A stretch of DNA of 64,000 nt from Candidatus Niyogibacteria bacterium (lineage in GTDB: Bacteria; Patescibacteriota; Minisyncoccia; HO2-45-28): assembly GCA_016432485.1 (NCBI GenBank), contig CP066691.1:77466-141465 (forward strand). Direction: 5' to 3'. Shown here piece by piece: positions 24,570 to 49,665 of the stretch (the first letter of the stretch is position 1; every line of letters starts with the position of its first letter). The position numbers were made by a program, and so were the translations under genes. A model generated the notes under the pieces. That model was not told the origin of the DNA. It ran no database searches and saw only the letters and a program-made list of their open reading frames with translations.

Positions 24570-25340
24570 CTAGAGATAATCCAATAAACGGTCATAATCT
24601 ATAAATTGAAAAATCTTATAACCGTAAGAAATAAGAAGGCCGATATTGCCAGAAACCAAAAGTATGCCGAGGAAAATAAGAAAGATGCCGCCGATTACGG
24701 AAACGATATTAAGATATTTAGATATATTTTGGACATAACGGGAGGCCGATCCAATGCCTGCGGCAATAAGTAAAAATGGTATCGCGAGTCCCGCCGAGAA
24801 AATAGTAAGCAATAATCCGCCCTGGAGCGCGCTGGTTGAGGTTGAGGCCAATAAGAGCACCGAGCCTAAGATCGGGCCAACGCACGGCGTCCACCCAAAC
24901 GCAAAAGCGCTGCCTAAAATGAACGAGTTGGACGCGCGCCCTCGTTTCAGCAAAGCGGGAGTCTTAATTTGAAATTCGCGCTGTAAAAAAGGCAATTTCA
25001 AAATATTGAGCATAAACAGTCCGAAGATGATAACGAAAATTCCGCCGATTCTTCCAAGCCATAATCTATAAGGAGCAAGAAACCTGGCGCCGACAAAACC
25101 GATGAGCGTTCCCATAACGATAAAAACCGCGCTAAACCCAAGCATAAAGAAAAAGCCGTTGAGAAAAATTTTCCATCGGGCCTGCTTGGCTTTAGCCGGG
25201 TCCTTGAGGTCTTCTAAAGAGGAGCCGCTGATGAAACCCAAATATCCCGGCACCAAAGGAAGGGTGCATGGGGCAAGAAATGTAAGAATGCCGGCAATAA
25301 AAGCCGGAACTATTAACGCGGCAATTGAAAGCTCAAGCAC
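24570..25340 (-). CDS. ccdA: Cytochrome c biogenesis/thiol-disulfide transporter CcdA/DsbD-family membrane protein
   Basis: TFLAPCTLPLVPGYLGFISG and a second conserved Cys (WTPCVGP). Confidence 0.75.
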   Translation of the reverse strand: MLELSIAALIVPAFIAGILTFLAPCTLPLVPGYLGFISGSSLEDLKDPAKAKQARWKIFLNGFFFMLGFSAVFIVMGTLIGFVGARFLAPYRLWLGRIGGIFVIIFGLFMLNILKLPFLQREFQIKTPALLKRGRASNSFILGSAFAFGWTPCVGPILGSVLLLASTSTSALQGGLLLTIFSAGLAIPFLLIAAGIGSASRYVQNISKYLNIVSVIGGIFLIFLGILLVSGNIGLLISYGYKIFQFIDYDRLLDYL

Positions 25341-25797
25341 GATGGTTTTTATAAAATTTTATAAGCGCTTTACGTTGAACGGGCTCTAAGTGAATCGAGG
25401 GTCTTTGTTTTTTAATAAATTTTTCTGCATTCGCCGGAGACATCCCGCGTGTTTTTATAAGATATGCCGCCATCATAGTGGGCGCTCTGCCGTGGCCGTT
25501 TTTGCAGTGCAGATATATCTTTTGCTTCATAGCGACCAAATTTTTAAGGGTCAAGACGCCGAATTCCAGTTGTTCCTGTTTGGGAGCGGTGTGGTTTTTG
25601 ACGGGAATCCACGCGTAAAAATAAGCCCCGAAAGGAGAATCAATCTTCTCTTCCTCAAGAGAAACATCGGCCATTATGCCCTTTTTCTTAAGTTCCCCGT
25701 TAAAATGCGTCTGACAGCACAAATTCGTGCCGATATAAATTCCGTCGGTGATATAGTTATATTCAAATTTAGGAGCTCCGTGTTTTTCTTTAGACAT
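25333..25797 (-). CDS. Dual-specificity/tyrosine phosphatase-like protein (HCxxGxxR)
   Basis: HCKNGHGRAPTMMAAYL catalytic loop. Confidence 0.6.
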   Translation of the reverse strand: MSKEKHGAPKFEYNYITDGIYIGTNLCCQTHFNGELKKKGIMADVSLEEEKIDSPFGAYFYAWIPVKNHTAPKQEQLEFGVLTLKNLVAMKQKIYLHCKNGHGRAPTMMAAYLIKTRGMSPANAEKFIKKQRPSIHLEPVQRKALIKFYKNHRA

Positions 25798-25821
25798 ATT
25801 TTTTACACATCTCCCGCTTTT

Positions 25822-26355
25822 TTATTTGTTAATCAGTTCTTCTATTTTACTTTTAATCTCATCCAATTTCATCGGTCCTCTCTTGTGAATAACTATGTTT
25901 TTTTCAGGGTCAACAAATATTGTTTCCGGCATTGAAAATCCGCCGATTGATTTATAAAAAGAATCAGATGGGTCGAGCAAGAAAACCAGCTGGTTGGTGG
26001 TTCCTTGCCGGTCGGTATATCCCTTTGCGACACCCAATGATTCGGCGCGGTCAATAGCGATAATCACGACTTTATCGCCAAACTCCTTTTGTGCTCTTGC
26101 GAAATCAGGAAGCTCTTCGCGGCAAAACGGACACCATGCCGCCCATGAGTTTATAACCAAAGGTTTGCCCGAAAAATCCGTGAGTCGAACGGTATTCCCG
26201 CCGTAATCCTGTAAAGCAAAATCGGGGGCTTTTTCGGATTGAGCCGTTTGAGCCGTTTGTTTTGATTCTTCGGGGGCGTTTTTCGCGCGAATTACAAGCC
26301 ATCCGACGCCCCCCAGAATCAAAAGCCCTATGATTATTGCGAATAATTTATTCAT
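25822..26355 (-). CDS. TlpA/ResA-like thiol:disulfide oxidoreductase (secreted, thioredoxin fold)
   Basis: WAAWCPFCREELP CxxC motif and an N-terminal signal/TM. Start set at MNKLFAII. Confidence 0.75.
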   Translation of the reverse strand: MNKLFAIIIGLLILGGVGWLVIRAKNAPEESKQTAQTAQSEKAPDFALQDYGGNTVRLTDFSGKPLVINSWAAWCPFCREELPDFARAQKEFGDKVVIIAIDRAESLGVAKGYTDRQGTTNQLVFLLDPSDSFYKSIGGFSMPETIFVDPEKNIVIHKRGPMKLDEIKSKIEELINK

Positions 26356-26369
26356 TTTTATTATCGCGG

Positions 26370-26531
26370 CTATTTGCAACCGCAGTCGCAATGGCCGCCT
26401 TCGTGGTGTTCGTGGCCGCAATGCTCGCATTTCTTATGCTCCACTGGATGATTGTGTTCTTTATGCTCATCACAAGGGCACTCGCAAGCCATGCATTTTT
26501 CGTGTTTTTCGTCGTGTGTATCTTCGTGCAT
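26370..26531 (-). CDS. Unannotated 53-aa Cys/His-rich putative metal-binding protein (MHEDTHDEKHEKCMACECPCDEHKEHNHPVEHKKCEHCGHEHHEGGHCDCGCK)
   Basis: Hand-translated from the minus strand; absent from the ORF track because it is under 60 aa. It has 10 Cys and 11 His in CxC/CxxC/HxxH patterns. It sits between the thioredoxin and tlpA genes on the same strand. The two plus-strand ORFs over it look spurious. Confidence 0.55.
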   Translation of the reverse strand: MHEDTHDEKHEKCMACECPCDEHKEHNHPVEHKKCEHCGHEHHEGGHCDCGCK

Positions 26532-26577
26532 ATTATTTTTTTTAATTAATTAATGATTTGTTTCGGGCAGCCCGACC

Positions 26578-26835
26578 TTATTTTGTGCCTGCCCATTCCT
26601 TTAATTCTTCATAGGGGGCCTCTCCGCAGATAAAGGCGTCAGAGTCGGTATTAATGAAAAACGGAACGCCGCCGCACCGGCCCTTATCATATTCTTTCAT
26701 CTTTTTTGCGTTTTCTTCGTTATGCCAAACTTCATATTTTTCAACTTTCAAACCGGCTTCTTTTTCCAGCCGCTCCACCAACGGCATCATCTTAATGCAG
26801 TGCGGACACTCTTTTCCGTAAAAATCTATAAGCAT
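26578..26835 (-). CDS. Thioredoxin/glutaredoxin-like protein (CPHC active site)
   Basis: FYGKECPHCIKMMP. Confidence 0.7.
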   Translation of the reverse strand: MLIDFYGKECPHCIKMMPLVERLEKEAGLKVEKYEVWHNEENAKKMKEYDKGRCGGVPFFINTDSDAFICGEAPYEELKEWAGTK

Positions 26836-26845
26836 AATTGATTTT

Positions 26846-27880
26846 TTATTTTAATAATTCTGTATCAGGGTGAGCGGCAACCCACGAAAACCAAAATGAG
26901 CCAAATGGGTTGATGCGCAGAAGCGTGCCATCAGTTTTTTTCTCGAAAATCCGCACGGCGTCAATTTCTTTTTCGTACTTCGCAATAATCGTTTTTCCCT
27001 CAAAGCTATCTTCAATTTCACCGACTTTTTTCACCGCCTCCGGCCAATATGCCTTAGCTTTTCCATTTATTACGATGCCGAGAACAAAGTCCTTATCGCT
27101 TAAGCGGTCATCTTTTTTACCAACTGGGAAATAAGTTCCCGGGGTGGTGTAGTAATCGCCGTACGGGTCCTGCCCGTAAAACCGCGTTGTTCCCGTATCT
27201 CGCGAGAGCACTTCTCCTGTCGGGTGGAGCTTCCGCCATTCGCCGAATCGAATCTGGTCTGACTGCAAAACGGCGAGATGCGTTCCGGTTTTTTCTCCGA
27301 CAATCGCTTCGCCCAAAATCTGCGACCACAATGAATCGGTTTTTCGGTCATACATTACCAAGTTTGAATTCCATAATTTACCCGAAGTGCCGAATTCCAC
27401 TCGTTCTCCCTCCACAACGGGGTCAAAAACTATTCCGGACAAGCATAGCGGGCAATAGGTTACAAGAACCCGTTTCCCATTTATGGTGTCATTTACAATC
27501 TCGTGCCAGACCAAAATTTGAAACGGATAAAAACGGCTGACATTGCCCATTTCAAGCGCAAGGCCTGGTTCGGCGTCCGATAACTGCTTCGATGCCTCAC
27601 CAACCGAAATAAATTTGGGATTATCAATGGAAGGAATCCCGTCTTTTGGCGGACCTCCGCCGAGGATAGAGTCCAGAGGAACGCTATGTTTTACGCCGTC
27701 AGTAACCATAATTTCTTTTTCTACTTCACTGCCGTTGTTTTGAATCATAATTATTTCTTTTTTAACCTCTCCACCTTGAGGCAAATTAAAGTCGTTTTTA
27801 AATATAACACGGGACAGAACAAGCGCGGCTACAACCGCAACCCCAACCACTATTATAATTGTAATTACCTTTAAATTCAT
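26846..27880 (-). CDS. DUF3179 family protein
   Basis: Conserved TYCPLC motif and an N-terminal TM. Start set at MNLKV to avoid overlap with the upstream gene. Confidence 0.55.
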   Translation of the reverse strand: MNLKVITIIIVVGVAVVAALVLSRVIFKNDFNLPQGGEVKKEIIMIQNNGSEVEKEIMVTDGVKHSVPLDSILGGGPPKDGIPSIDNPKFISVGEASKQLSDAEPGLALEMGNVSRFYPFQILVWHEIVNDTINGKRVLVTYCPLCLSGIVFDPVVEGERVEFGTSGKLWNSNLVMYDRKTDSLWSQILGEAIVGEKTGTHLAVLQSDQIRFGEWRKLHPTGEVLSRDTGTTRFYGQDPYGDYYTTPGTYFPVGKKDDRLSDKDFVLGIVINGKAKAYWPEAVKKVGEIEDSFEGKTIIAKYEKEIDAVRIFEKKTDGTLLRINPFGSFWFSWVAAHPDTELLK

Positions 27881-27884
27881 CTTT

Positions 27885-28418
27885 TTATTCAATAAGCGAG
27901 GCAACGTCTGATTCCCGAATGTCTCCGGGGATGGTGCGGACCAGATTACCGTTTATGTCTATCAAGAAATGCGTGTTGGTGTACTGAATGCCGAAAACAT
28001 TTGAGGCCCGGCTGAAAGGGTCAAGCGCTATCGGAAAATTTATTCCGCGAGATTCTATAAAATCCGCGACGGTTGACTCATTTTCGTGCAGATTAACTCC
28101 TATCACTTCCACTTTGTCTTTATATTTTTCATAAAAACGATTTAGATTCGGCATGTCTCTTCGGCAATTCGGGCACCACGAAGCCCAAAAATCAACCACC
28201 ACCGGCTTCTTGCCCCTAAACTCCGATAGCGTTATGGTTCCTCCGCCCAGCTTTTGCAGCTTAAAATCCGGCGCGGAGCTTTCTTGCAAAGCTGTTCCGG
28301 ACGCCCCCGAATGCACCGAGGCGCTTTGTGAGGCGGTATTGCCGCCATATGACCTCCCAAACGCTATCAGGCCGATTGCGGCAATAATCGCGCCTATAAT
28401 TAATATTTTGTTTCTCAT
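27885..28418 (-). CDS. TlpA-like thiol:disulfide oxidoreductase (redoxin)
   Basis: FWASWCPNCRRDMP. Confidence 0.75.
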   Translation of the reverse strand: MRNKILIIGAIIAAIGLIAFGRSYGGNTASQSASVHSGASGTALQESSAPDFKLQKLGGGTITLSEFRGKKPVVVDFWASWCPNCRRDMPNLNRFYEKYKDKVEVIGVNLHENESTVADFIESRGINFPIALDPFSRASNVFGIQYTNTHFLIDINGNLVRTIPGDIRESDVASLIE

Positions 28419-28433
28419 TTAGATTTAATAATT

Positions 28434-28745
28434 TTATTTAATAATTTGCATCAGCTGTTTGACCATGGAATTATCCTTTTTTAATTTATAACAAACCATT
28501 TGTCCCATTCTTGTTTTTTCGACCAGTTCAAGCATTTCCAGAACTCTCAACTGCTGGGATGCCGCGGATACCGTAATATCAAAAATGTTCGCCACATCGG
28601 TTACGCAAATATCGTGGTTCTCCGAAAGCAATTTGAAAATCCGAAATCTGCCAGGATCTCCCAGCGCGCCAAGAATGAGGGGCATCCGGTCCATATCGCT
28701 TGACAATTCTTTTTTTATCCTGTTTACCTGTTCTTTTGTAAGCAT
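28434..28745 (-). CDS. ArsR/SmtB-family transcriptional regulator (two-Cys type)
   Basis: wHTH VTDVANIFDITVSAASQQLRVLEMLELV. Cys in ICVTD and in C-terminal VCYK. Confidence 0.8.
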   Translation of the reverse strand: MLTKEQVNRIKKELSSDMDRMPLILGALGDPGRFRIFKLLSENHDICVTDVANIFDITVSAASQQLRVLEMLELVEKTRMGQMVCYKLKKDNSMVKQLMQIIK

Positions 28746-28803
28746 GTTAATTAAGTAATTGCATAATTACTTAATCCTACTCCCAAGAAACTTTTGTGTC
28801 AAC
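28746..28803 (-). promoter_or_regulatory. Promoter of the arsR-redoxin operon (minus strand: -35 TTGACA, 17-nt spacer, -10 TAGGAT) followed by an 11-bp inverted-repeat operator attaagtaatt-N4-aattacttaat that overlaps the start codon
   Basis: Read on the reverse complement of 28746-28803. Confidence 0.55.
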
Positions 28804-28835
28804 CCTGCCTGCCGGCAGACAGGTGTGGATAAGCC

Positions 28836-28861
28836 CCGCCACTTAAAAAGAGCGCCCGAAA
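28836..28861 (-). terminator. Rho-independent terminator after the aroE-like gene (stem agagcgc/gcgctct + T-tract on the minus strand)
   Basis: aaagagcgcccgaaaggagcgctct…, read in minus orientation, is followed by ttttaagt. Confidence 0.5.
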
Positions 28862-28877
28862 GGAGCGCTCTATAAAT

Positions 28878-29933
28878 TTAAGAACCCGCGGCTTGCTTCA
28901 TAACTTCGGCCACTTGTTCCTTGGTGATATTTTTTGCTTCCAAAACTTTTTGATTCACGAGCCAGAAGGCCTCTATTGCCTGATTCAAGACCATCGGTTT
29001 GCCGTCAAGCGTGGAAAACCCGGCCAATTTTGCCTCGCGAATGGTTGCGGTATCTTGATTGCGCAGCATTACATCCGAAATAATTGTTTCTCTATGCATA
29101 CTCTCCATAATTTGTTTTGCTTCTTTGAGATTATCGGCAATATGTTCGGGAGTTGCCGGCAACTCAATCGTTCCAAGAGCCGAATATTGGTCAAGGGGTG
29201 ATGTAGGATCATCGATTACGGAAATGACGAGGTCCGCATCGCGCACTTCATCCTGAATTAGTTCTCGTCCTCCAAACCGCGCGATATTTTTGCGGAAGTA
29301 AGTATTGACGCGCTCAGCTAAGTCCTCCGCTTTAGCCGCGGTTCTATTCAAAATCATAAGGTTGGCCCCTTCTTTAGCAAGAGCAAATGAGATTGCATTG
29401 GCAGTACCGCCGCCTCCTAAAATCACAACCTTTTTACCGCCTATTTGTTCTCCTCGCTCGCCTAATTTTTCTTTCACGCTTTGCGCATAACCAAGACCGT
29501 CTGTATTATAGCCCCTCAATATTCCGTTTTCTTCTTTAACCACAACATTTATGGCTTGCATCTCGCGCGCCAAAGGATCGACTTCGTCAATAATTTTCCA
29601 CGCGCGATCCTTAAATCCCACTCCCACGTCGCCACCAAGATACTTTCGGTCTTTTTTGAAAGAATTGAATATTACTTCAGAATTTTCCGGATCGCCGGCT
29701 AAACGAATGTTTCTGGTGTCAAAGCCGAAATGTTCATAGACGGCATTCCAAAGAAATGGCGTTCTTGCCTGGTAATCTTTATTGGCAATGCCAAGCGCAA
29801 ATTCCGGAAAATCAAGCATTTTGGGATTTTCTTTTGCATTTTCCCCGATTTTTACAATGCCCGATTCAATTAAAGTGTGCACTTGTTCCATATGTTGTTT
29901 TTCCTCCGGGTGTTCCATAGAAAATTTTATCAT
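28878..29933 (-). CDS. Shikimate/quinate dehydrogenase family protein (AroE-like)
   Basis: GYNTDGLG motif and GGGGTANAI Rossmann. Confidence 0.6.
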   Translation of the reverse strand: MIKFSMEHPEEKQHMEQVHTLIESGIVKIGENAKENPKMLDFPEFALGIANKDYQARTPFLWNAVYEHFGFDTRNIRLAGDPENSEVIFNSFKKDRKYLGGDVGVGFKDRAWKIIDEVDPLAREMQAINVVVKEENGILRGYNTDGLGYAQSVKEKLGERGEQIGGKKVVILGGGGTANAISFALAKEGANLMILNRTAAKAEDLAERVNTYFRKNIARFGGRELIQDEVRDADLVISVIDDPTSPLDQYSALGTIELPATPEHIADNLKEAKQIMESMHRETIISDVMLRNQDTATIREAKLAGFSTLDGKPMVLNQAIEAFWLVNQKVLEAKNITKEQVAEVMKQAAGS

Positions 29934-30328
29934 AGATACTCAAAATAAATAAGGCTTACCACATCATCGTCTTGAAATGGTTTTTGATAGATCCATTCCA
30001 GTTGTTTTTTGGCGCTATTTTTGTCTTGACAATCCGGCAGACAGAATTGCAAATCGCGCGTTGTCAATTTTTCTATCTTTTTAACAATAATCTTTTGAAT
30101 TCTGACTTTTTGCTGAAAGTCATCAAATATCGGCTGAATTCCCTTGTCTTCTTGTCCGGGCCGAATGATAATTCGCACTGTCGCTATCTCGCCTTCTTGC
30201 GCGCCTTTGGGTTCCGGATAAATCCTAGTCCCCGGGCGCAGCGCCACTCGAAGCGTCCTATTTTTAATGCGCTCTTTATATTGAGCGCGAAACCATAATT
30301 CATAAGGTTTTTTTCTTGCTCCCCTCAT
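29930..30328 (-). CDS. Hypothetical protein (possibly ASCH/PUA-like)
   Basis: ORF overlapping the aroE-like start by 4 nt. No firm family assignment. Confidence 0.35.
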   Translation of the reverse strand: MRGARKKPYELWFRAQYKERIKNRTLRVALRPGTRIYPEPKGAQEGEIATVRIIIRPGQEDKGIQPIFDDFQQKVRIQKIIVKKIEKLTTRDLQFCLPDCQDKNSAKKQLEWIYQKPFQDDDVVSLIYFEYL

Positions 30329-30389
30329 TTATAAAATAATATCACCATTTGAACATACATACAAATAGTGATATTTTAAAACGCGAAAA

Positions 30390-31184
30390 TCAATCCCATG
30401 CCTCTTTTTTAATCAGTTTAACGCCGGCCCCGCTCAACGCTTCTTGTGTGTCGTTCAGCATGGCTTTAAGTCCGCAGACATAAGCCGTGTATTGCTGAAT
30501 ACCGCCAACGATATCGGGAAAGTCGTTGCGAACTATAATGTCGTCTTTGTCGCGAATCACAAATCTGCCCCGGCCCCAATTCCAATCATCGTTTGCGTAT
30601 CTGGTTAGCGTCGGATAATATTTTATGTTGGGTAATCTTTTGGTAATATCCAACAATTCTTCGTGAAAGATAAGATGTTCTGTAGACCGGAAACTTCCCA
30701 ACAGCCAAACATCGGCATCCAAATTTTTGTCTTTGATGTATCTTACCATCCCGATAAACGGCGCGATACCGGTTCCTCCGCCTATAAACAAGAGTTTGCC
30801 TCCATCAATTTCCGCATCGTATAAAGTTATTTTTCCGTGCCTTACCCAATCTTTACTCGAGATCTCTATTAAATCCCTGCCGGAATCAATCTGCTGCAAT
30901 AGTTTGGAAACATGCGGTTCACGATCTTTCTCCACAATGGTTATTTCATAGAACGGCTGGGTGGGAGAGCTTGATAGAGAATAAGCGCGTATTTCCGTTT
31001 TATCGGACAAACTTTTAACCGTGCTGTCGGACTCTTCTTGAGATGCCGGCACGCGTATGTAAAGAAAGTCGCCCGGCCGATAGTCGGCTAACGCCTCGTT
31101 CTCCGGAACAAAACGAACGGCGCGCAGTTTCGGATTAAATTCAATTACTTCGGTGATTGTTGCCGGTACGACCTTAAGACCCAT
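30390..31184 (-). CDS. Ferredoxin-NADP+ reductase-like FAD/NAD(P)-binding oxidoreductase
   Basis: RAYS FAD-binding motif (EIRAYSLSS) and LLFIGGGTGIAPF NAD(P) motif. Confidence 0.7.
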   Translation of the reverse strand: MGLKVVPATITEVIEFNPKLRAVRFVPENEALADYRPGDFLYIRVPASQEESDSTVKSLSDKTEIRAYSLSSSPTQPFYEITIVEKDREPHVSKLLQQIDSGRDLIEISSKDWVRHGKITLYDAEIDGGKLLFIGGGTGIAPFIGMVRYIKDKNLDADVWLLGSFRSTEHLIFHEELLDITKRLPNIKYYPTLTRYANDDWNWGRGRFVIRDKDDIIVRNDFPDIVGGIQQYTAYVCGLKAMLNDTQEALSGAGVKLIKKEAWD

Positions 31185-31283
31185 GCTCGCCCCCCTTTTT
31201 GAAATGTCAAAAAACCACTTGAATACCTATTCAAATGATAATCCGAAAGCGAGAATTTGTCAAGCGTCTTAAAAATTTTAAAT

Positions 31284-31916: not shown

Positions 31917-31928
31917 ATTATTTTTTTA

Positions 31929-32441: not shown

Positions 32442-33874
32442 CGGATGTAATACAAAATCTTTAACAATTTTTTAACAAACGGCGTAAGACGGCCGGCCAT
32501 ATGTTCACTGGCGGCTTTTCGATTGATTCGAGAAGCGACAGGATAGGGATATATTTTATCAAACAGGGCGTTAATTTTCAGTCCGGCGCTGTTGGCCAAG
32601 ATTAATTCCTGGACCATTTCTCCGGCATTTTTAGCTGCCATAGTGCCGCCGAGAATTTTTTTGTCAGAAGATAAAAACAGCTTAAGCATTCCGTCCGTGG
32701 ACTCGTCCACAATCGCGCGGTCGTCGTTTTTAAAAGATTTTCTTATCGTAGAATACTTTATCCGTTTTTTGTCTAAATCTTTCTCGCTTAGCCCGAATGT
32801 TGCTATCTCCGGGTCGGTATAAGTAACCCAGGACATTTTGTCGGTTTCCAATCTTTTCTTAAATGGCGAGAAAAAGTTCTTTAAAACAAGTTTTGCGTGC
32901 AATTCCGCCGCGTGGGTAAATTGGTGTTGTCCGGCAACATCGCCCACCAAGTAAATATTTTTATTTGTGGTTTTAAGATAAGAATCAACTTTTATTTTTC
33001 CGTTATCCATTTCAACGCCGGCTTTTTCAAGATTCAGCCCCTCTGTATTTAAAGATCTGCCCATAGCGACAAGCAGAGCGTCAAATTCCAAACTGATTTC
33101 TTTGCCGGTTCCGTCTTTAATAACAATTTTATTCCTATCCACAATCTTTTCCGGCCGGCTGTTCATATAAAACCTCATACCGTCCTCAGAGAGCTGTTTA
33201 AAAATAAAATCGGAAACTTCAGGATCTTCTTTATTTAAAATTGAATCGCCCCGAACCACGACCGAAACGTCTGAACCAAGATATTTAAAGGCCTGGCCGA
33301 GTTCCATTCCAATAGGACCGCTGCCAATAACCACCATTTTTTTAGGAAAGAAATTAATGTCAAAGATTGTTTCATTGGTAAATATGTTTGACGCGTCTTT
33401 GACCCCGGGAATATCCAGCTGTTTTGGGCGCGATCCGGTGGCTATTATAATTTTTCTGGCCTCATATTCTTCTCCGCCAAGAACAACGGCATTAGAAGAA
33501 ATAAATTTAGCCAAACCCAACTTAACGGTAATCCCTTTTTTACTAAGGGCTCGAAAATTTTCATCTTCTCTGATAATGCCCTGCTTTTCTTTTATGTACG
33601 CCGTGACCTTGCCGATATCAACTGCGCCGTTTGTTTTAAGCCCGAATCTCTCAACACCCTTTCCGTTTTTTATAATTCTTGCAACATGAATAAGCGCTTT
33701 TGACGGGACACAACCAAAATTCAAGCAATCGCCGCCGATGTTTCTGTCGCTTTTATCAATTAGAAGCGTCTTGAAACCGGCTTTATTCATAAATGAAGCA
33801 ACATTAAGACCGCCTGAACCAGCGCCAATAACAATAATATCAAAGGTTTTGTTTATAAATTCCCGCACGGGCAA
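32438..33874 (-). CDS. Class I pyridine nucleotide-disulfide oxidoreductase (dihydrolipoyl dehydrogenase/MerA-like)
   Basis: IVIGAGSGG FAD motif and redox-active GGDCLNFGCVPSK. No C-terminal Cys pair. Confidence 0.75.
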   Translation of the reverse strand: MPVREFINKTFDIIVIGAGSGGLNVASFMNKAGFKTLLIDKSDRNIGGDCLNFGCVPSKALIHVARIIKNGKGVERFGLKTNGAVDIGKVTAYIKEKQGIIREDENFRALSKKGITVKLGLAKFISSNAVVLGGEEYEARKIIIATGSRPKQLDIPGVKDASNIFTNETIFDINFFPKKMVVIGSGPIGMELGQAFKYLGSDVSVVVRGDSILNKEDPEVSDFIFKQLSEDGMRFYMNSRPEKIVDRNKIVIKDGTGKEISLEFDALLVAMGRSLNTEGLNLEKAGVEMDNGKIKVDSYLKTTNKNIYLVGDVAGQHQFTHAAELHAKLVLKNFFSPFKKRLETDKMSWVTYTDPEIATFGLSEKDLDKKRIKYSTIRKSFKNDDRAIVDESTDGMLKLFLSSDKKILGGTMAAKNAGEMVQELILANSAGLKINALFDKIYPYPVASRINRKAASEHMAGRLTPFVKKLLKILYYIR

Positions 33875-33877
33875 ATT

Positions 33878-34120
33878 TTATTTTACTCCCAACAAAACAT
33901 CAACTTTTTCTTTGTCAAACCCGACAATTATTTTACCGTCTATTTCCACCGTTGGCGTGGAGAGAAGCCCGCCGTTTTTGGCAATCATTTCTTCTCTTGC
34001 TTTCGCGTCTTCGCCCACATCCTTATTTTCATACCCAAATCCTTTTTCCTGAAGATACGCCTTCAGCATTTTGCAGGAAGGACAGGTGGAAGTTGAGTAA
34101 ATAGTTATTTTGTGTTCCAT
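33878..34120 (-). CDS. Glutaredoxin-like protein (NrdH/Grx, CPSC)
   Basis: ITIYSTSTCPSCKMLK. Paralog of the gene at 37864-38100. Confidence 0.75.
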   Translation of the reverse strand: MEHKITIYSTSTCPSCKMLKAYLQEKGFGYENKDVGEDAKAREEMIAKNGGLLSTPTVEIDGKIIVGFDKEKVDVLLGVK

Positions 34121-34182: not shown

Positions 34183-34863
34183 TTAGCTCATAGTCGCCTC
34201 TGTGCCGCCCCTGGTACCCACTCTGGCAAAATGCTTCTCCTGAAAAGCTAAGAGTTCGTCCTTGTGGTTTTTTATCAGCATGGCGTAATTCATTAAATTT
34301 CTGGCCGTAACGGCAATCATGGCTTTGGTGGCTTTGTTTTGACGGCGTTTATCCGCGTCTCCATTCATCCCGCCGCCGACTTCGCCCACCCAATACACCG
34401 CGGCTTCGGGCGGTATTACAAATCCAAGCCACTGCAAAAAATTAGACAGATTACCGACGATATGTTGCACACCATCCTCATGTCCCGTTATGACGATACC
34501 GGCCACTTTATGGTAGAGGTCTGATTTGTTGGTCATAACATACGACTCGTCAAAATGAGTCATTCGTTCTATAACGCGCTGAATCAAACTGGATTGCCCG
34601 CCCCACCAAATGGGCGTGGCAAAAATCACGATGTCCGCTTCGCGGATCGCATTAGCCAGACGGGGCCAATCGTCGCCGTCGGACATTTTTTCTAACAAGC
34701 CGACGGGTAAATTCAGATTGGCAAGACGGATTTTCTCTGTGGATATGTCATATTCGTTAAAATGCCTGAACAGGTCGTCAATCAGTTCGTCGGTATTGGA
34801 GGGTTCGTCGCCGGTTTTCAGCGTTCCCAAAAGCGCTAACGCCTTTATATTAAATTTTTTCAT
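34183..34863 (-). CDS. Flavodoxin-like NAD(P)H-dependent FMN reductase family protein
   Basis: IVIFATPIWWGGQSSL motif. Confidence 0.6.
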   Translation of the reverse strand: MKKFNIKALALLGTLKTGDEPSNTDELIDDLFRHFNEYDISTEKIRLANLNLPVGLLEKMSDGDDWPRLANAIREADIVIFATPIWWGGQSSLIQRVIERMTHFDESYVMTNKSDLYHKVAGIVITGHEDGVQHIVGNLSNFLQWLGFVIPPEAAVYWVGEVGGGMNGDADKRRQNKATKAMIAVTARNLMNYAMLIKNHKDELLAFQEKHFARVGTRGGTEATMS

Positions 34864-35289
34864 CTAGATTAATTTTTTAACCTCTTCTTCTAATTGGCCT
34901 TCGACTCCAGGACCAAGAATATTAAAAACAATGTCGCCGTTTTTATCAATTAAGTAATACGCCGGCCAATTTTCCACTTTGTACGCTTTCCAATTTTGCC
35001 TTGCGTTATCGGTAAGCACCGGAAAATCCACTTTCAAAACTTTCATTTGTTTCTTGAGGGCTTCGATGTCCCGCTCAAAAGTTGTTTCCGGAGAATGAAC
35101 ACCAAGCACTATCAACCCCCTGTCTTTGTATTTCTTTTCAATCTCCATAATGCCAGGCAAATCCTGCTGGCACCAAGAGCACATAAAAGTCCAGAATTTA
35201 ATTAAAACCACTTTGCCTTTCAGGTCGGCGAGTTTAAGCGGCTCTGAATTGAGCCATTTTTCGCCATCGGTTATAAATTCCGGCGCCCT
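34864..35289 (-). CDS. Thioredoxin-fold redoxin (AhpC/TSA/TlpA-like, CSWC)
   Basis: KFWTFMCSWCQQDLP. Start set at MRAPEF, 7 nt downstream of the merA-like stop. The longer ORF-track start would overlap merA by ~100 nt. Confidence 0.65.
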   Translation of the reverse strand, partial: RAPEFITDGEKWLNSEPLKLADLKGKVVLIKFWTFMCSWCQQDLPGIMEIEKKYKDRGLIVLGVHSPETTFERDIEALKKQMKVLKVDFPVLTDNARQNWKAYKVENWPAYYLIDKNGDIVFNILGPGVEGQLEEEVKKLI

Positions 35290-35296
35290 CATATAT

Positions 35297-36823
35297 TTAT
35301 TCCGTACAGCAGGAAAGTTTGTTGACATCCTTTCGGAATGACTGCGCGACCCATTTGATTGATTCGGCCATAGTGGGAAAGATAAATGTATTTTCAATTA
35401 TATCATCTAATTTCATACGATGCTTGATAATGAAACTGGCAACGGAAATGATTTCATCGGCTCTGGCGCCCGCCATATGGATACCGACGACTTCCTCGGT
35501 TTTTGAATCAATTACCATTTTAATTAAGCCGTCCGCCGCTTCTAGAATATGCGCCTTTGGCACAAGTTCCAAACTCAAGGTGCGGCAGCTGCATACTAGC
35601 CCCGTTTGCTTGACGATTTGAGCGTCAGTCAGGCCGACGCTCGCCAGCGGCGGGTCGGTGAAGATGGCGTGGGGTGCCGCCCGGAAATCAACTTTGATGC
35701 CCTTATTTTCCAAAAGATTAGACGCGGCAACAAAACCCTCTCTGCCCGCGACGGTTTCCAGTTTAAGATTAACCTCTTCGCCCGACTGATCCACCACATC
35801 GCCGGCGGCAAATATGTGAGGTAGGTCTGTTTGTAGAAATTCATTGGTTGCGACTCCGCCTCTTTCGCCGACACGAACACCGATATGCTCAAGATTTAAT
35901 GATTGGGTATTGGCTCTTACTCCTGATGCAACCAGTATTTTTTCTGCCTCAATAATAATTTCTTTCTTGCCCGCCGTAGCTTTACTGCGTCCTTCCGTAG
36001 CCTTTGGCGAAGGAGGAGCGGAGGCGGGGTCGCCAACCTCGACAGTTGCTTTAATAAGATTGCCGTTATGCTCAACACCCTTGGTTTTAGCGGAAGTATA
36101 AATGGTTGTGCCCTCTTTTTCTAGTTTCTTTTTCAGAAAATCTGAAAGCTCCGGCTCTTCGCGGTCGGCTATTTTGTCCGCATACTGCAAAACCGTAACC
36201 TTCGTTCCGAAACGATTGTAAATTTGGGAAAATTCAAGACCCAACGGCCCCCCGCCCAAAATAATCATTGATTTCGGCAACTCCTTCAAACTCAAGGCCT
36301 CGATATTGGTGAGATACGCGACTTTATCCAGCCCATCAATCGGAGGAATAAAAGTGGAAGAACCGGTTGAAATCAAAAATTTTTCTCCCGTAATTTTCTC
36401 CCCGCCCGCCGTAGCTTTAGCGGAGGCGGGGCCATTTATTTCAACCGTGTGCTCGTCAATAAATTTCGCGTCTCCTTCTTTAAGAGTTACATAAACCAGA
36501 AATTTAAGAGTTCCGGCATACGCCTTTCCCTGAAGTTTGCGGATTAGCGCGTCTTTGGATTCAACGACTTTTTTAAAATCCAAATCCGGCACACTGCCGG
36601 CTACGCCGTCATACTTGCTGTAACGCGCGTTCCAATAGGATTCGGCCACAGTAAGCAATCTTTTTGACGGCATACATCCGACATTAATGCAGGTTCCGCC
36701 CAAAGGAACTTTTCCGCCCGATATCATTAAAGTTTTAATCTTCAAAGAATCCGCCTTGATGGCAGCCGCGAAACCCGCGGCTCCGCCCCCGATGATGATA
36801 AACTGATAGTCGTAATTTTTCAT
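35297..36823 (-). CDS. Mercuric reductase-like pyridine nucleotide-disulfide oxidoreductase (no NmerA domain) carrying two in-frame palindromic-element insertions
   Basis: GGTCINVGCMPSK active site and a C-terminal vicinal Cys pair …KLSCCTE, which is a MerA hallmark. Inserts PASAKATAGG (36402-36432) and ASAPPSPKATEGRSKATAGKK (35969-36029). Confidence 0.65.
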   Translation of the reverse strand: MKNYDYQFIIIGGGAAGFAAAIKADSLKIKTLMISGGKVPLGGTCINVGCMPSKRLLTVAESYWNARYSKYDGVAGSVPDLDFKKVVESKDALIRKLQGKAYAGTLKFLVYVTLKEGDAKFIDEHTVEINGPASAKATAGGEKITGEKFLISTGSSTFIPPIDGLDKVAYLTNIEALSLKELPKSMIILGGGPLGLEFSQIYNRFGTKVTVLQYADKIADREEPELSDFLKKKLEKEGTTIYTSAKTKGVEHNGNLIKATVEVGDPASAPPSPKATEGRSKATAGKKEIIIEAEKILVASGVRANTQSLNLEHIGVRVGERGGVATNEFLQTDLPHIFAAGDVVDQSGEEVNLKLETVAGREGFVAASNLLENKGIKVDFRAAPHAIFTDPPLASVGLTDAQIVKQTGLVCSCRTLSLELVPKAHILEAADGLIKMVIDSKTEEVVGIHMAGARADEIISVASFIIKHRMKLDDIIENTFIFPTMAESIKWVAQSFRKDVNKLSCCTE

Positions 36824-37182
36824 ACTTTTAATCGCCCCTTAAGAATTTGCACCAAGGGAGTTTTCCTTAATTTATAATACACATTGCGGAAATCTCGACG
36901 GCGCTCCACAATGTCCGCTTTTTGTAATTTTTTAAGGGTGTGTGAGACGGCAGAAATGGAAATGCCGACCACCTCGGCAATGTCTCCGACGGACAGTTCC
37001 TTGTGCCGGCACAAAAGATAACAAATTTTCAGACGCGTCGGGTCGCCGACCATATTAAATTCCCGCGCGCAGGCAATAATGGCGTTTTTATCGTTAAGTT
37101 CCTTTTTGAGATTATTTTTATTCCTACTTGAGCTCACGTTCAAATGATAACAAAATAAATATAAAAGTACAACAAGCATCAA
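36820..37182 (-). CDS. ArsR/SmtB-family metalloregulator (CxC in alpha-helix: KICYLLC); start uncertain, may be at MVGDP (37053)
   Basis: wHTH SVGDIAEVVGISISAVSHTLKKL. Overlaps the merA-like start by 4 nt. The N-terminal 43 codons of the ORF contain promoter-like AT-rich sequence. Confidence 0.6.
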   Translation of the reverse strand: MMLVVLLYLFCYHLNVSSSRNKNNLKKELNDKNAIIACAREFNMVGDPTRLKICYLLCRHKELSVGDIAEVVGISISAVSHTLKKLQKADIVERRRDFRNVYYKLRKTPLVQILKGRLKV

Positions 37183-37249
37183 AACTTAGACCCCAATACA
37201 AAAGCCGGGCAAGCTCGGCTTTTTATAAAAATATTCTTAACCTATAGGT

Positions 37250-37837
37250 CTAATTTTGGTGGTATTTGCTTGGTAAATTTTTCCGTCCCCACAGCATTGT
37301 CTCGGCCATCCAGATAAGTTCTTCCAAAAATTCATCAGCGCGTTGATTATACGCGTCGTCTTTCAATTTACCGTCGCTATCAAAAGTATTTTGAACTTGC
37401 GGAAAATTCAGATTGGAGAAAGTGACCGCCAGCCCCAGTTCTCTTACCACCGGAACAAGCGACTCAACGGCCCTGGTTCCTCCCCAGGGACCCGCTGAAA
37501 CACCCACAAGTCCGACTGCCTTATGCACATATTCCCGAAGCACGACATCCAAGAGCGATTTAAGCGTCCCGGGATAAGCGTGATTATATTCCGGAACAAC
37601 AACAACAAGCCCGTCGGCCTTTATTATCGCGTCGCGATATTCGGAGAATTTTCCCTTATCTTTAAGTGCTTGTCCGTAATCATTTGTCGGAAAGTTAAAG
37701 TCGCGGACATCAAAAAGTTTTGTCTCAATCTTTTCATGCCCGTTCATCCTGTCATATAAAAACTTGGCGACATTTTCGCTTTGCCTGCCTTCCCGGTTTG
37801 TTCCAAGAATTACCGGTATAAATAATTTTTCCGTCAT
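37250..37837 (-). CDS. NAD(P)H-dependent FMN reductase / flavodoxin-like protein
   Basis: GLVVVVPEYNHAYPGTLKSLLD. Confidence 0.6.
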   Translation of the reverse strand: MTEKLFIPVILGTNREGRQSENVAKFLYDRMNGHEKIETKLFDVRDFNFPTNDYGQALKDKGKFSEYRDAIIKADGLVVVVPEYNHAYPGTLKSLLDVVLREYVHKAVGLVGVSAGPWGGTRAVESLVPVVRELGLAVTFSNLNFPQVQNTFDSDGKLKDDAYNQRADEFLEELIWMAETMLWGRKNLPSKYHQN

Positions 37838-37863
37838 ATATTTGAGTTTTATTATTTATTAAA

Positions 37864-38100
37864 TTATTTAATTCCCAAAAGGCCGGAGAGCCGTTCTTTG
37901 TCAAAGCCGACCGTGAGTTCGCCGTCGATATCCGTCACAGGCACGCCCATTTGTCCCGACTTTTTAATCATTTCCTCGCGCGCCGCGGCGTCCGAAGCAA
38001 CGTCTTTTTCGGAATATTCAATATTATTTTCCTTGAAGAACGCCTTAGTCATCTTGCAGTAGACGCACGAAGGGGTGGTATAAATTGTTACATTTTTCAT
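37864..38100 (-). CDS. Glutaredoxin-like protein (CVYC)
   Basis: VTIYTTPSCVYCKMTK. Confidence 0.75.
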   Translation of the reverse strand: MKNVTIYTTPSCVYCKMTKAFFKENNIEYSEKDVASDAAAREEMIKKSGQMGVPVTDIDGELTVGFDKERLSGLLGIK

Positions 38101-38122
38101 AATTTTTATTTATTTTTTTAAT

Positions 38123-38404
38123 TTAACTTATAATTTTTAGAATCGATTTTACGACTGAATCGTTTCTTTTGACTTTATAGCATATTTTTTGGCCCATTCT
38201 TTCCCTTTTAACGAGCCCCGCCATTTCCAGAATCCTGAATTGCTGGGAGACCGCTGGAACCGATATTTTAAGGGCGGAGGCGATTTCCGAAACGCAAAAA
38301 TCCTTCTTTTTGGCAATCAGCTCAAGTATGCGAAACCTGCTCGGATCGCCCAATACATTGAAAATAAGCCGGGTTTTTTCTTTTTTTGCCTTATATTTAG
38401 CCAT
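38123..38404 (-). CDS. ArsR-family regulator (paralog of 28434-28745, two-Cys type)
   Basis: GDPSRFRILELI…FCVSEIASALKISVPAVSQQFRILEMAGLV…KICYK. Confidence 0.8.
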   Translation of the reverse strand: MAKYKAKKEKTRLIFNVLGDPSRFRILELIAKKKDFCVSEIASALKISVPAVSQQFRILEMAGLVKRERMGQKICYKVKRNDSVVKSILKIIS

Positions 38405-38470
38405 AGAATATTAAACATTTAAGCAACTACTTAAAGTATACTCCGAGATAAAAGCGGTGTCAACCCCGTT
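38405..38470 (-). promoter_or_regulatory. Promoter of the second arsR operon (minus strand: -35 TTGACA, 17 nt, -10 TATACT) with a ttaag…cttaa operator-like sequence
   Basis: Reverse complement reads cggggTTGACAccgcttttatctcggagTATACTttaagtagttgcttaaatg…ATG. It shares the GGGTTGACAC block with the arsR1 promoter. Confidence 0.5.
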
Positions 38471-38517
38471 TTAGAAAGACCTGTGTATAACTTCCCCTCT
38501 TTTATCTCTGCCCCGTC

Positions 38518-39048
38518 CTATATCCCGCCGCTTGCTCCCGGTATTTTCTCCGGGCCTCTGTTGCTGTAGCGTTTAATAAAATCTTCAATGCGTTGGACGG
38601 GCAGAATGTTATTTTCGATATTAAAAGTATCCAATCGGCCCCAGGCGGCAAGAGCTATGTCGGCATCGTTAGTTTCCCGCGGTTCTATGATGACTTTAGC
38701 GGCTCCGAACTCCTTTAATTGGTTTTTTATTTCGTCCGTAACGCGCGGATGGTAGGCAATCCAAACATCGCCATGCTCAAGATTATGGATAATATGCTGA
38801 TCGGCTATTGATTCGGCGCGAAATCCGGAGCGCGCGGTTTGTCCGTAGTGAGGCCCCGATGTGGGCGGATTTGAAGTATATTCCGGAAGCGGGCCGCCTA
38901 CGGCTATGTGGCTTATATTTTCCATAATAGGAATTTGTCGGCTAAAATCCTCGCCTTCGGGAGTGGCATTTTGTACCAAAAGATATAAACCGAAACTTAT
39001 GGCGGCAATAACAGCAATGATTATAATGTAAAATTTTAATTTGCGCAT
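38518..39048 (-). CDS. DUF3105-like secreted/membrane-anchored protein
   Basis: N-terminal TM. PPTSGPHYG and HNLEHGDVWIAY motifs. Confidence 0.45.
   Translation of the reverse strand: MRKLKFYIIIIAVIAAISFGLYLLVQNATPEGEDFSRQIPIMENISHIAVGGPLPEYTSNPPTSGPHYGQTARSGFRAESIADQHIIHNLEHGDVWIAYHPRVTDEIKNQLKEFGAAKVIIEPRETNDADIALAAWGRLDTFNIENNILPVQRIEDFIKRYSNRGPEKIPGASGGI

Positions 39049-49630: not shown

Positions 49631-49665
<35 letters not shown>

Follow-up and report, generated by a model that had tools for sequence, protein, structure and literature searches.

Every gene between positions 39048 and 22125 of the 64,000-nucleotide stretch analysed here, a part of a Candidatus Niyogibacteria chromosome referred to below as the window, lies on the minus strand. 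Among the products are a mercuric reductase (MerA), three regulators of the ArsR family (ArsR1, ArsR2 and ArsR3) and a number of thiol-disulfide proteins. The region is fairly likely to represent a conserved thiol-redox and mercury-defence neighbourhood of the chromosome of this member of the Parcubacteria (candidate phyla radiation, CPR), in which the two-cysteine regulators ArsR1 and ArsR2 would respond to dithiol modification. The exact MerA protein is on record from a Candidatus Niyogibacteria metagenome-assembled genome, on an 837-kb contig.

A preliminary description had outlined a ~14-kb island of thiol-redox and metal-stress genes. All of the genes that it listed are present, with identities from profile searches against Pfam and NCBIfam; they lie on the minus strand and follow the order given there. 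They comprise three ArsR-family regulators, two glutaredoxin-like (Grx) proteins, two FMN_red-domain proteins, two class-I flavoprotein disulfide reductases, three TlpA/ResA-like redoxins, a DUF3179 protein, a small thioredoxin (Trx), a 53-residue Cys/His-rich open reading frame (ORF), a DSP phosphatase and CcdA. The thiol-redox and metal-stress character of the neighbourhood was likewise borne out. The outline had left out a part of ~3.6 kb (28878-32441) without evident redox role, and the DUF3105 gene at the 5' end.

In the direction of transcription, the gene order is DUF3105, ArsR2, Grx1, FMNred1, ArsR3, MerA, TrxC, FMNred2, Grx2 and PNDR, followed by a CDP-alcohol phosphatidyltransferase, SIS, an FNR-like reductase, orf132 and a shikimate-dehydrogenase-like (SDH) gene, and finally by ArsR1, TlpA-a, DUF3179, the small thioredoxin, CH53, TlpA-b, a DSP-fold phosphatase, CcdA and a G6PD-6PGD fusion. 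Promoters and terminators delimit four co-directional transcription units. Unit 1 is ArsR2-Grx1-FMNred1 and unit 2 is ArsR3-MerA-TrxC-FMNred2-Grx2-PNDR, the third is the ~3.6-kb part, and unit 4 is ArsR1-TlpA-DUF3179-Trx-CH53-TlpA-DSP-CcdA.

The G+C content of the region (0.41-0.45) matches that of the remainder of the window, so that the region stands out as a neighbourhood by function and not by composition. The window translations and profile scans of the region showed neither integrase nor transposase, and the downstream synteny MerA...SIS...SDH...ArsR1-TlpA is common to three loci of relatives, L009, L020 and L021. The reading as a horizontally acquired genomic island was rejected on the ordinary composition and the shared synteny; an ancient transfer, from archaea, is reported for the MerA lineage alone.

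The mer operon and the linked regulator ArsR3

The features of unit 2 are the following:
36820..37137, minus strand: ArsR3, a 105-residue three-cysteine regulator of the ArsR family (C23, C39, C43), its start reassigned from an ortholog alignment
35297..36823, minus strand: MerA, a 508-residue core mercuric reductase without the NmerA domain (TIGR02053, 472.7 bits; cutoff 454.45)
34864..35292, minus strand: TrxC, a cytoplasmic TlpA/ResA-like redoxin (CSWC) without signal anchor (AhpC-TSA, 61.3 bits; Redoxin, 55.5 bits)
34183..34863, minus strand: FMNred2, a flavoprotein with an FMN_red domain (PF03358, 66.9 bits)
33878..34120, minus strand: Grx2, glutaredoxin-like (CPSC; PF00462, 54.2 bits; TIGR02196, 84.9 bits, just below the cutoff of 88.55)
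32438..33874, minus strand: PNDR, a class-I flavoprotein disulfide reductase (GGDCLNFGC) without a C-terminal Cys pair (NF004991, 427 bits; cutoff 620)
37144..37172, minus strand: candidate ArsR3/merA promoter TTGTAC-17-TATCAT, within the ArsR3 N-terminus of the mechanical ORF
37128..37143, minus strand: candidate ArsR3 operator TTGAA-N6-CTCAA, overlapping the GTG start codon in a leaderless-type layout

Besides the mercuric reductase model, the next best reductase model for MerA is lipoamide_DH, which it fails (331.8 bits; cutoff 408.8), as it fails all others. The question raised in the preliminary description, whether the enzyme groups with lipoamide dehydrogenases, is thereby answered: it groups with MerA. 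Its best solved relatives, from Metallosphaera (4YWO), Lysinibacillus (5X1Y) and Tn501 (1ZK7), are all MerAs. The redox-active pair C45/C50 (GGTCINVGC) corresponds to C207/C212 of the RC607 enzyme, and the C-terminal pair C505/C506 (KLSCCTE), equivalent to RC607 C628/C629, aligns with the SCC of 4YWO and 5X1Y. MerA is characterized by a Tyr at RC607 position 264 and by a Tyr (bacterial) or Phe (archaeal) at position 605 (Boyd & Barkay 2012; Christakis et al. 2021, PMC8261052). The former is represented by Y102, which lies 57 residues past C45 and is reached without gaps in the 5X1Y alignment, and the latter by F482, aligned with the Tyr of PYLT in 5X1Y and the Phe of 4YWO and thus the archaeal variant.

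The NmerA domain with its GMTCxxC motif was not found in this protein, which begins 5 residues before the FAD-binding motif and to which model NF010311 aligns from profile position ~97 onward (312.6 bits; cutoff 600). Both the C-terminal pair (SCCTE) and the lack of an N-terminal metal-binding domain had been correctly recognized in the preliminary description. By its family membership the MerA-like protein is a genuine core MerA. CPR MerAs have been catalogued from many lineages, and a transfer from a thermophilic archaeon has been inferred for them (Christakis et al. 2021, PMC8261052). The present enzyme belongs to this catalogued lineage and is not new; its orthologs at 62-86% identity come from Parcubacteria, and the next tier, at or below 47%, is mostly archaeal. 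Scans of metagenomes and genomes for relatives of MerA gave few close loci, and the gene contexts compared here stem from look-ups of exact proteins.

TrxC begins 4 nt past the merA stop codon, and its orthologs (77-86% identity) directly follow MerA in L009, L020 and L021 and lie one gene further down in L022. Orthologs of Grx2 (73-94% identity) are downstream of MerA in seven of ten related loci, and FMNred2 is beside MerA in L008, L009 and L012. Over these ten loci, TrxC accompanies MerA in four, Grx2 in seven and an FMN reductase in four. PNDR, which begins 3 nt after Grx2 and scores 320 bits with the MerA model (cutoff 454), could be assigned to no specific family among the models searched and has no close solved relative. 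It is absent from all ten related MerA loci and is regarded as an accessory specific to this genome.

ArsR3 starts at a GTG at 37137, in agreement with the 105-residue NCBI protein P0241; the mechanical ORF list had started it too early. The GTG lies 6 nt after the TATCAT -10 box, and ArsR3 is translationally coupled to merA through an ATGA overlap. The operator is a perfect TTGAA-N6-TTCAA in L008, L009 and L022 and has one or two mismatches in the other orthologs, always at the start codon, while the block TTATCATTTGAA of the promoter region is kept upstream of six orthologs and inverted in a seventh. An ArsR3 ortholog stands directly upstream of MerA in eight of the nine related loci with a readable upstream side. 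Even in L029, where MerA is only 40% identical and represents a second MerA lineage, ArsR3 is still 67% identical.

Of 120 family members, 119-120 keep C23 in α1 and C39 and C43 in α2 (C-x15-C-x3-C). None of these cysteines is at the classical CVC position, and conservation of the family is high (67-83% identity, P0241-P0360). Mer operons under an ArsR-type repressor have been established for Sulfolobus and Streptomyces (PMC3466566). ArsR3, not singled out in the preliminary description, has a three-cysteine signature different from that of the other two regulators; it is the MerA-linked one and would be the Hg(II) sensor of the mer operon.

The merA gene is interrupted by short in-frame inserts, which are listed with a related copy:
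35968..36028, minus strand: GC-rich in-frame merA insert encoding the peptide PASAPPSPKATEGRSKATAGK, 85% identical over 61 nt to the copy in the 6PGD half
22826-22886, minus strand: GC-rich copy of 61 nt in the 6PGD half of the G6PD-6PGD gene
36391..36430, minus strand: short in-frame merA insert encoding PASAKATAGG

The long insert is absent from the orthologs and from the solved MerA structures. A comparison of 21 MerA orthologs (62-100% identity) shows insertions at eight or more sites, each occupied in some orthologs and empty in others. The inserted peptides are short and rich in Pro/Ala/Ser/Gly, with PEGxxPRPYGAG, STSSGQAG and PASAKATAG as recurring motifs. In the window the repeat sits in frame in two genes that are unrelated to each other, merA and the G6PD-6PGD gene. 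A profile search for the GC-rich repeat found only three copies in the window. The pattern suggests a mobile family of 40-60 nt GC-rich repeats that is tolerated in frame in surface loops, and it is reminiscent of the Rickettsia palindromic elements. A hairpin-forming palindromic element was considered and rejected, the insert DNA folding no better than shuffled sequence (z = -1.2, +0.6 and -1.7).

The two-cysteine regulators and their regulon

Units 1 and 4, together with their control elements, contain the following features:
38123..38404, minus strand: ArsR2, a 93-residue two-cysteine regulator of the ArsR family (C37, C75; HTH_5, 51.7 bits; NF033788, 77.8 bits)
37864..38100, minus strand: Grx1, glutaredoxin-like of the YruB family (CVYC; TIGR02196, 92.6 bits; cutoff 88.55)
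37250..37837, minus strand: FMNred1, NADPH-dependent FMN reductase family (PF03358, 100.5 bits)
38435..38463, minus strand: promoter of the ArsR2 unit, TTGACA-17-TATACT, sigma-70-type, 11 of 12 consensus matches
38411..38434, minus strand: candidate ArsR2 operator TTAAGTAGTT-GCTT-AAATGTTTAA, a degenerate 10-4-10 palindrome directly after the -10 box
37200..37223, minus strand: terminator-like hairpin and T run closing the ArsR2 unit (inverted repeat I2, 11 nt, 91% complementary, then TTTTGTATT)
28434..28745, minus strand: ArsR1, a 103-residue two-cysteine regulator of the ArsR family (C47, C85; H44-D45 before C47), from profile searches
27885..28418, minus strand: TlpA-a, a membrane-anchored extracytoplasmic thiol-disulfide oxidoreductase (WCPNC; Redoxin, 92.5 bits; N-terminal anchor visible)
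26846..27904, minus strand: DUF3179, membrane-anchored, with a YCPLC motif (PF11376, 295 bits)
26578..26835, minus strand: small cytoplasmic thioredoxin-like protein (CPHC), without signal sequence (weak Thioredoxin-family matches)
26370..26531, minus strand: CH53, a 53-residue Cys/His-rich peptide (10 Cys, 13 His; KCMACxCPCDEHKEH), from ORF reading
25822..26355, minus strand: TlpA-b, a second membrane-anchored TlpA/ResA-like oxidoreductase (WCPFC), from profile searches
25333..25797, minus strand: DSP-fold protein (HCKNGHGR, CX5R motif), overlapping the CcdA start by 8 nt (DSPc, 53.8 bits)
24570..25340, minus strand: CcdA/DsbD-type transmembrane thiol-disulfide electron transporter (DsbD_TM PF02683, 60.6 bits; cutoff 27.1)
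28774..28802, minus strand: promoter of the ArsR1 operon, TTGACA-17-TAGGAT, 10 of 12 consensus matches
28750..28775, minus strand: putative ArsR1 operator ATTAAGTAATT-ATGC-AATTACTTAAT, a perfect 11-4-11 palindrome abutting the -10 box
28849..28871, minus strand: intrinsic terminator between the upstream block and the ArsR1 unit, a 9-pair stem followed by TTTTT

All three regulators belong to the ArsR/SmtB superfamily, with 66.2, 77.8 and 79.3 bits for NF033788 (cutoff 55). A homolog search with ArsR1 retrieved 279 proteins, of which all the named ones are from Parcubacteria lineages. As the preliminary description had stated, ArsR1 (C47, C85) and ArsR2 (C37, C75) each carry one Cys at α3 and one in an (I/V)CYK motif. 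All 122 aligned sequences, ArsR2 included, keep C47 and C85, and 101 of them have H44; H44-D45-x-C47 is kept in most ArsR1-family members, and ArsR2 is without the His residues. ArsR1 and ArsR2 are assigned to a Parcubacteria-wide subfamily, for which no characterised relative was found.

The Protein Data Bank (PDB) yielded no close relative; the top match there to ArsR2 is SmtB (E = 1.9e-9). C37 of ArsR2, equivalent to C47 of ArsR1, aligns to C61 of SmtB, a position which we take, via the ELCVCDL motif, to be that of C32 in ArsR. C75 lies in the wing strand, and C85 of ArsR1 is the residue preceding the conserved wing Tyr. The canonical As(III) motif C-(V/A)-C in α3 is replaced by CVT in ArsR1, CVS in ArsR2 and SVG in ArsR3.

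An AlphaFold model of ArsR1 (mean predicted local distance difference test score, pLDDT, of 88.4) shows an α1-α2-α3-α4-β1-β2-α5 topology with an extra N-terminal helix. In this model C47 is located in a two-residue β bridge (46-47) just before α3, and C85 in β2 (83-88). Because such a bridge normally pairs with the second wing strand in winged-helix folds, C47 and C85 would be neighbours in the fold. Thiol-based sensing by ArsR1 and ArsR2 is plausible, since both cysteines are invariant in 122 family members.

The palindromic operators announced in the preliminary description do exist. The pattern TTAAGnAnTT-N4-AAnTnCTTAA (10-4-10), to which the perfect ArsR1 palindrome conforms, recurs in L009 and L024-L027 at the same distance from the start codon, ~29 nt. 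In the candidate ArsR2 operator 7 of 10 arm positions are complementary when read by eye, and its position and outer TTAAG...TTTAA are as in the ArsR1-family operator. The hairpin that closes the ArsR2 unit was not listed by the terminator scan and was found as an inverted repeat. A literature search on CPR, ArsR and glutaredoxin yielded no paper on a two-cysteine ArsR regulon, and a search on TsoR/TsoB, as NCBIfam calls an ArsR model that matches weakly here, yielded nothing relevant.

In unit 1, the order ArsR-Grx-FMN_red recurs in L029, and a homolog of FMNred1 (45% identical) follows MerA in L022. Unit 4 is, as had been described, an operon headed by ArsR1 for an extracytoplasmic disulfide-reduction system. 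TlpA-a scores 113.8 bits with the ResA subfamily model (cutoff 170), and orthologs of TlpA-b (53-68% identity) are present in seven related loci. DUF3179, which matched no NCBIfam family, is present in six of nine related ArsR1-type loci; the family includes selenoprotein forms with UxxC/T, implying a redox-active site (PMC9312934), so that the CPLC motif is probably redox-active. The small thioredoxin (CPHC) is a candidate electron donor to CcdA, which keeps both membrane cysteines in its translation, one per helix (LAPCTLP and WTPCVGP). CcdA also weakly matches the NCBIfam model of a rhodanese/DsbD fusion selenoprotein (TsoB).

CH53 has no Pfam or NCBIfam family in the profile searches. A 58-residue homolog keeps both the motif and the operon position in L021 (4378-4554; tblastn 4.5e-7), and further tblastn matches are found in L026 and L028. 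CH53 is on this ground taken to be a real conserved gene, missed by gene callers in public assemblies, and it is probably a metal-binding peptide. The DSP-CcdA pair recurs in L024, L025 and L026, with DSP always immediately upstream of CcdA. From this one may suspect that the DSP-fold protein serves CcdA in the cytoplasm as a partner in redox or sulfur chemistry instead of acting as a phosphatase.

The regulon in relatives always begins with ArsR-Grx, while DUF3179, TlpA, CcdA, thioredoxin reductase (TrxR) and MerC/MerT-like proteins are variable:
L024: ArsR-Grx-DoxX-...-TlpA-MerT-like-Zn-ribbon-DSP-CcdA
L025: ArsR-Grx-TlpA-DUF3179-DoxX-TlpA-DSP-CcdA
L026: ArsR-Grx-DUF3179-DoxX-TrxR-GDH-...-MerC-TlpA-...-DSP-CcdA
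L028: ArsR-Grx-TlpA-DUF3179-DoxX-TlpA-CcdA-FMN_red
L029: ArsR-Grx-FMN_red-TrxR-...-CcdA, with ArsR3-MerA-MerC 2.5 kb upstream
L030: ArsR-Grx-DUF3105-DsbA-DUF3179-DoxX-...-TrxR-rhodanese-...-TlpA-MerT-like
L021 (Sungiibacteria, CP066690): ArsR-Grx-DUF3179-CH58-TlpA-CcdA-TlpA-MerC-like-MerA-TrxC-Grx2

ArsR and Grx are adjacent in eight of eight related loci, and the Grx after the regulator is always an ortholog of Grx1 of the window (68-78% identity). For this reason units 1 and 4 are interpreted as a split copy of one Parcubacteria-wide regulon, ancestrally a single operon; after the split, by this interpretation, ArsR2 keeps Grx1 and gains an FMN reductase, and ArsR1 keeps the extracytoplasmic part. 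In the Sungiibacteria locus, the ArsR-Grx operon passes directly into MerC-like-MerA-TrxC-Grx2, which links both systems. Low-molecular-weight TrxR-like reductases are part of the regulons of L026, L029 and L030, DsbA of that of L030, and CcdA and TlpA are widespread.

MerC/MerT-like membrane proteins are found inside the two-cysteine ArsR operon in four of ten contexts. The L026 MerC reaches 29.1 bits (cutoff 27.6), the MerC-like protein of L021 reaches 20.5 bits, and the MerT-like proteins of L024 and L030, whose first membrane helix contains the motif ASLCCLTP, reach 21-22 bits, so that three of the four matches are under the Pfam cutoffs. Searching the window by tblastn with the relatives' proteins revealed no MerT, MerC, TrxR, DoxX, DsbA or rhodanese. 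The operons of relatives also contain a conserved zinc-ribbon-like protein of 58-59 residues, (Q/E)CEECG...C..WC.EH.SCN, with a weak DUF7128 match (L024 7691-7870, L026 13047-13226 and L027 7688-7864), which is absent from the window.

Intervening and flanking genes

The remaining features of the region and its surroundings are:
28878..32441, minus strand: intervening block of CDP-alcohol phosphatidyltransferase, SIS, FNR-like reductase, orf132 and shikimate-dehydrogenase-like genes (profile and promoter scans)
31235-31263, minus strand: strong sigma-70-type promoter of the FNR-like gene (promoter scan)
38518..39048, minus strand: DUF3105 membrane-anchored protein, upstream of the ArsR2 promoter (PF11303, 79.5 bits; N-terminal hydrophobic anchor visible)
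22125..24554, minus strand: G6PD-6PGD fusion of 809 residues, outside the coordinates of the preliminary description (profile search)

The intervening block is without evident redox or metal role, yet it is syntenic with MerA in relatives; orf132 matched nothing in Pfam or NCBIfam. DUF3105 lies within or beside the two-cysteine ArsR regulon in L030 and L021. The terminator scan found no terminator in the 15-nt gap between CcdA and the G6PD-6PGD gene. This gene may close the ArsR1 unit, and its product may supply the cluster with NADPH. The fusion recurs in two further parcubacterial loci (L022, 14555-end; L029, 1-2337), within a few kb of either MerA or the ArsR-Grx operon.

Outside the region, a tRNA-Ala(TGC) gene at 39571-39641 on the minus strand covers the first ~19 codons of a mechanical ORF (39097-39627, cytidylyltransferase-like), the true start of which must be further downstream. 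A group I intron at 49874-50189 (Rfam RF00028, 54.5 bits) extends the 16S rRNA gene (49012-51088, minus strand) to 2077 nt. Group I introns are often reported in CPR rRNA genes.

Proposed mechanism, alternatives and significance

In the mechanism that we infer, unit 2 would be an archaeal-type mer operon, held by the three-cysteine repressor ArsR3 on TTGAA-N6-TTCAA overlapping its own leaderless-type start, and binding of Hg(II) to C23, C39 and C43 would release ArsR3 from this operator. The NmerA-less core MerA would then reduce Hg(II) to Hg(0) with NAD(P)H, and TrxC and Grx2, cytoplasmic CxxC proteins conserved alongside it, might pass Hg(II) to the C-terminal Cys pair of MerA or mend Hg-blocked and oxidised thiols. 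The two-cysteine ArsR would bind the 10-4-10 palindrome abutting the -10 box and govern units 1 and 4, and modification of its dithiol, by a disulfide or a bound thiophilic metal, would derepress the regulon. Since the regulon holds TrxR-like, Grx/Trx, CcdA, anchored TlpA, DsbA, DUF3179 and DUF3105 proteins, electrons may flow from NADPH through a flavoprotein reductase to Grx/Trx, CcdA, membrane-anchored TlpA and extracytoplasmic CxxC clients such as DUF3179.

Unit 2 is most similar to the archaeal and early-branching mer systems (merR-merA of Sulfolobus/Saccharolobus solfataricus and the CPR lineage of PMC8261052), with which it shares a core MerA without NmerA, the Phe at RC607 Y605, the vicinal C-terminal Cys pair, an ArsR-family regulator instead of MerR, and the lack of MerT/MerP. 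Unit 2 departs from these systems in several respects. Its regulator gene runs in the same direction as merA, is translationally coupled to it and has a leaderless-type start within the operator. The operon includes genes for cytoplasmic TrxC, Grx2 and FMN reductase, which the table of mer functions in PMC3466566 does not contain. A TRASH-domain gene is lacking, and MerA has in-frame GC-rich inserts.

The two-cysteine regulators share with RexT, the H2O2 sensor of Nostoc that controls thioredoxin, and with BigR, HlyU and SqrR an ArsR fold without canonical metal site, a Cys pair and thiol-redox targets. However, RexT has two proximal cysteines in α3, whereas those of ArsR1 and ArsR2 are at the N-terminus of α3 and in wing strand β2, and no equivalog model was reached. 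Unit 4 resembles the CcdA-TlpA/ResA/Etrx pathways (cytochrome c maturation, Sco/Cu-site assembly and surface methionine-sulfoxide repair) in having a Trx-type donor, CcdA and anchored TlpA/ResA-like reductases. It differs in that the operon contains no cytochrome c maturation, Sco or Msr genes, its likely clients are DUF3179 (CPLC) and DUF3105, a DSP-fold CX5R protein and a Cys/His-rich peptide join it, and an ArsR-family repressor is in control.

Glutathione-free anaerobes have systems of Grx-like proteins and NAD(P)H reductases, such as those of the YruB family, exemplified by Cp9/Cp34 of Clostridium pasteurianum and by the Grx-like protein of Thermotoga with TrxR. The similarity to these is that Grx1 passes the YruB model and that a low-molecular-weight TrxR-like gene is in the same operon in L026, L029 and L030. 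In the window, by contrast, the neighbouring reductases are an FMN reductase and the class-I PNDR and not TrxR, and the operon is without peroxiredoxin.

Several points weigh against the mechanism as a whole. The proximity of the two cysteines of ArsR1 is read from secondary structure and from general winged-helix topology, and on sequence ArsR1 and ArsR2 may sense either a metal or a redox change. The ArsR3 family, with 417 matches at E <= 1e-10, is far more numerous than the MerA clade, with ~21-25 orthologs above 55% identity, so that ArsR3-type regulators in most CPR genomes may control targets other than MerA. The window contains no homolog of MerT, MerC or MerP. NCBI calls this MerA only 'FAD-dependent oxidoreductase' and its insert-free orthologs 'mercury(II) reductase'; the in-frame inserts split the hidden Markov model match in two, which may have cost the protein its specific name. 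The two inserts may also bear on the activity of MerA.

An alternative, which is unlikely in our judgement, is that the region forms an extended, dedicated system for mercury and thiophilic metals, with ArsR1 and ArsR2 as two-coordinate sensors of Hg(II), Cu(I) or Cd(II). Similarly doubtful is its second part, in which the extracytoplasmic DUF3179, TlpA and CcdA and the CH53 peptide would capture and import the metal for MerA, replacing MerP/MerT. Taken to its full extent, the two-cysteine ArsR regulon would be an undescribed CPR pathway that captures thiophilic metals such as Hg(II) outside the cell and imports them, a proposal to which we give little credence. Its members would in that case be Grx, DUF3179, TlpA, CcdA, the DSP-fold protein, the Cys/His-rich peptide and, in some genomes, the MerC/MerT-like proteins. 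It is likewise unlikely that reduced membrane-anchored CxxC proteins replace MerP/MerT and that TrxC and Grx2 stand in trans for NmerA, and rather doubtful, too, that the regulator senses metal via a new site made of the α3 Cys and the wing Cys.

This alternative draws on the Mer-transporter-like proteins inside the two-cysteine operon in four of ten contexts, the contiguity of that operon with MerA in L021, the metal-binding type of the Cys/His-rich CH53 and its L021 homolog, and the H44-D45-x-C47 kept in most of the family. However, the regulon consists mostly of generic thiol-disulfide housekeeping proteins (TrxR, DsbA, Grx, TlpA and CcdA), which favours redox sensing, three of the four transporter-like matches are below the Pfam cutoffs and the window has no such transporter by tblastn, ArsR2 is without the His residues, and MerA is already accompanied by a dedicated three-cysteine regulator, ArsR3.

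The preliminary description had proposed two tandem-duplicated modules of ArsR-Grx-FMN reductase-PNDR (A and B) under persulfide-sensing repressors of the BigR/HlyU type, which is improbable. An all-against-all blastp of the island proteins gave 51% identity for Grx1/Grx2 and 48% for ArsR1/ArsR2, values that speak for the proposal, but also 36% for ArsR2/ArsR3 and 26% for MerA/PNDR. FMNred1 and FMNred2 gave no match at 1e-3, and this, with the 26% of MerA and PNDR, contradicts the claim that the two reductases are clear paralogs. Tandem segmental duplication was rejected, only the Grx pair being similar among the corresponding genes. Module A is split into two units by the hairpin and T run at 37200-37223 and a separate promoter, and the grouping of module B does not hold in relatives, where FMNred2 and Grx2 go with MerA and PNDR is missing.

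The BigR, HlyU and SqrR proteins pair a Cys in α2 with one in α5, forming an intraprotomer polysulfide bridge (PMC10054925). Membership of ArsR1 and ArsR2 in this class was rejected, their cysteines lying instead at the α3 N-terminus and in β2, and the BigR equivalog NF040642 gave 22.1, 32.6 and 38.1 bits for the three ArsRs (cutoff 155). The invariance of both cysteines and the presence of rhodanese, DsrE and DoxX genes, involved in sulfur trafficking, in or near related operons speak for persulfide sensing, but the window has no sulfide:quinone oxidoreductase, persulfide dioxygenase or rhodanese.

Very improbable is a third possibility, that the MerA-like enzyme is a high-molecular-weight disulfide reductase whose C-terminal Cys-Cys, like the SCCS of TrxR, reduces TrxC and Grx2: a C-terminal vicinal Cys architecture is common to high-molecular-weight TrxR, TrxC and Grx2 are tightly co-conserved with MerA (75-94% identity), and the window has neither a low-molecular-weight TrxR (tblastn) nor a Hg transporter, but the protein is above the MerA equivalog cutoff and below that of every other reductase model, keeps the Hg-ligand positions Y102 and F482 that define MerA, is paired with a three-cysteine ArsR of metal-sensor type, and has homologs flanked by MerC-like genes in L021 and L029.

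MerA in CPR bacteria and ArsR-regulated mer operons are already known. In the literature searched, the two- and three-cysteine ArsR subfamilies with their operators, the conserved ArsR-Grx-DUF3179-TlpA-DSP-CcdA regulon, and the recurrent TrxC, Grx2 and FMN-reductase partners of an NmerA-less MerA appear to be undescribed. CPR bacteria have tiny genomes, their stress physiology is little known and the organisms are uncultivable. The analysis defines for them a thiol-disulfide regulon that extends across the Parcubacteria and in which promoters and operators follow a clear architecture. The Cys positions of both ArsR subfamilies match none of the classes compared, that is, CVC-type ArsR, BigR/HlyU/SqrR and RexT. 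TrxC, Grx2 and the FMN reductase are candidate accessory proteins for MerA without NmerA, and testable roles are offered for DUF3179, DUF3105 and the CcdA-paired DSP-fold protein.

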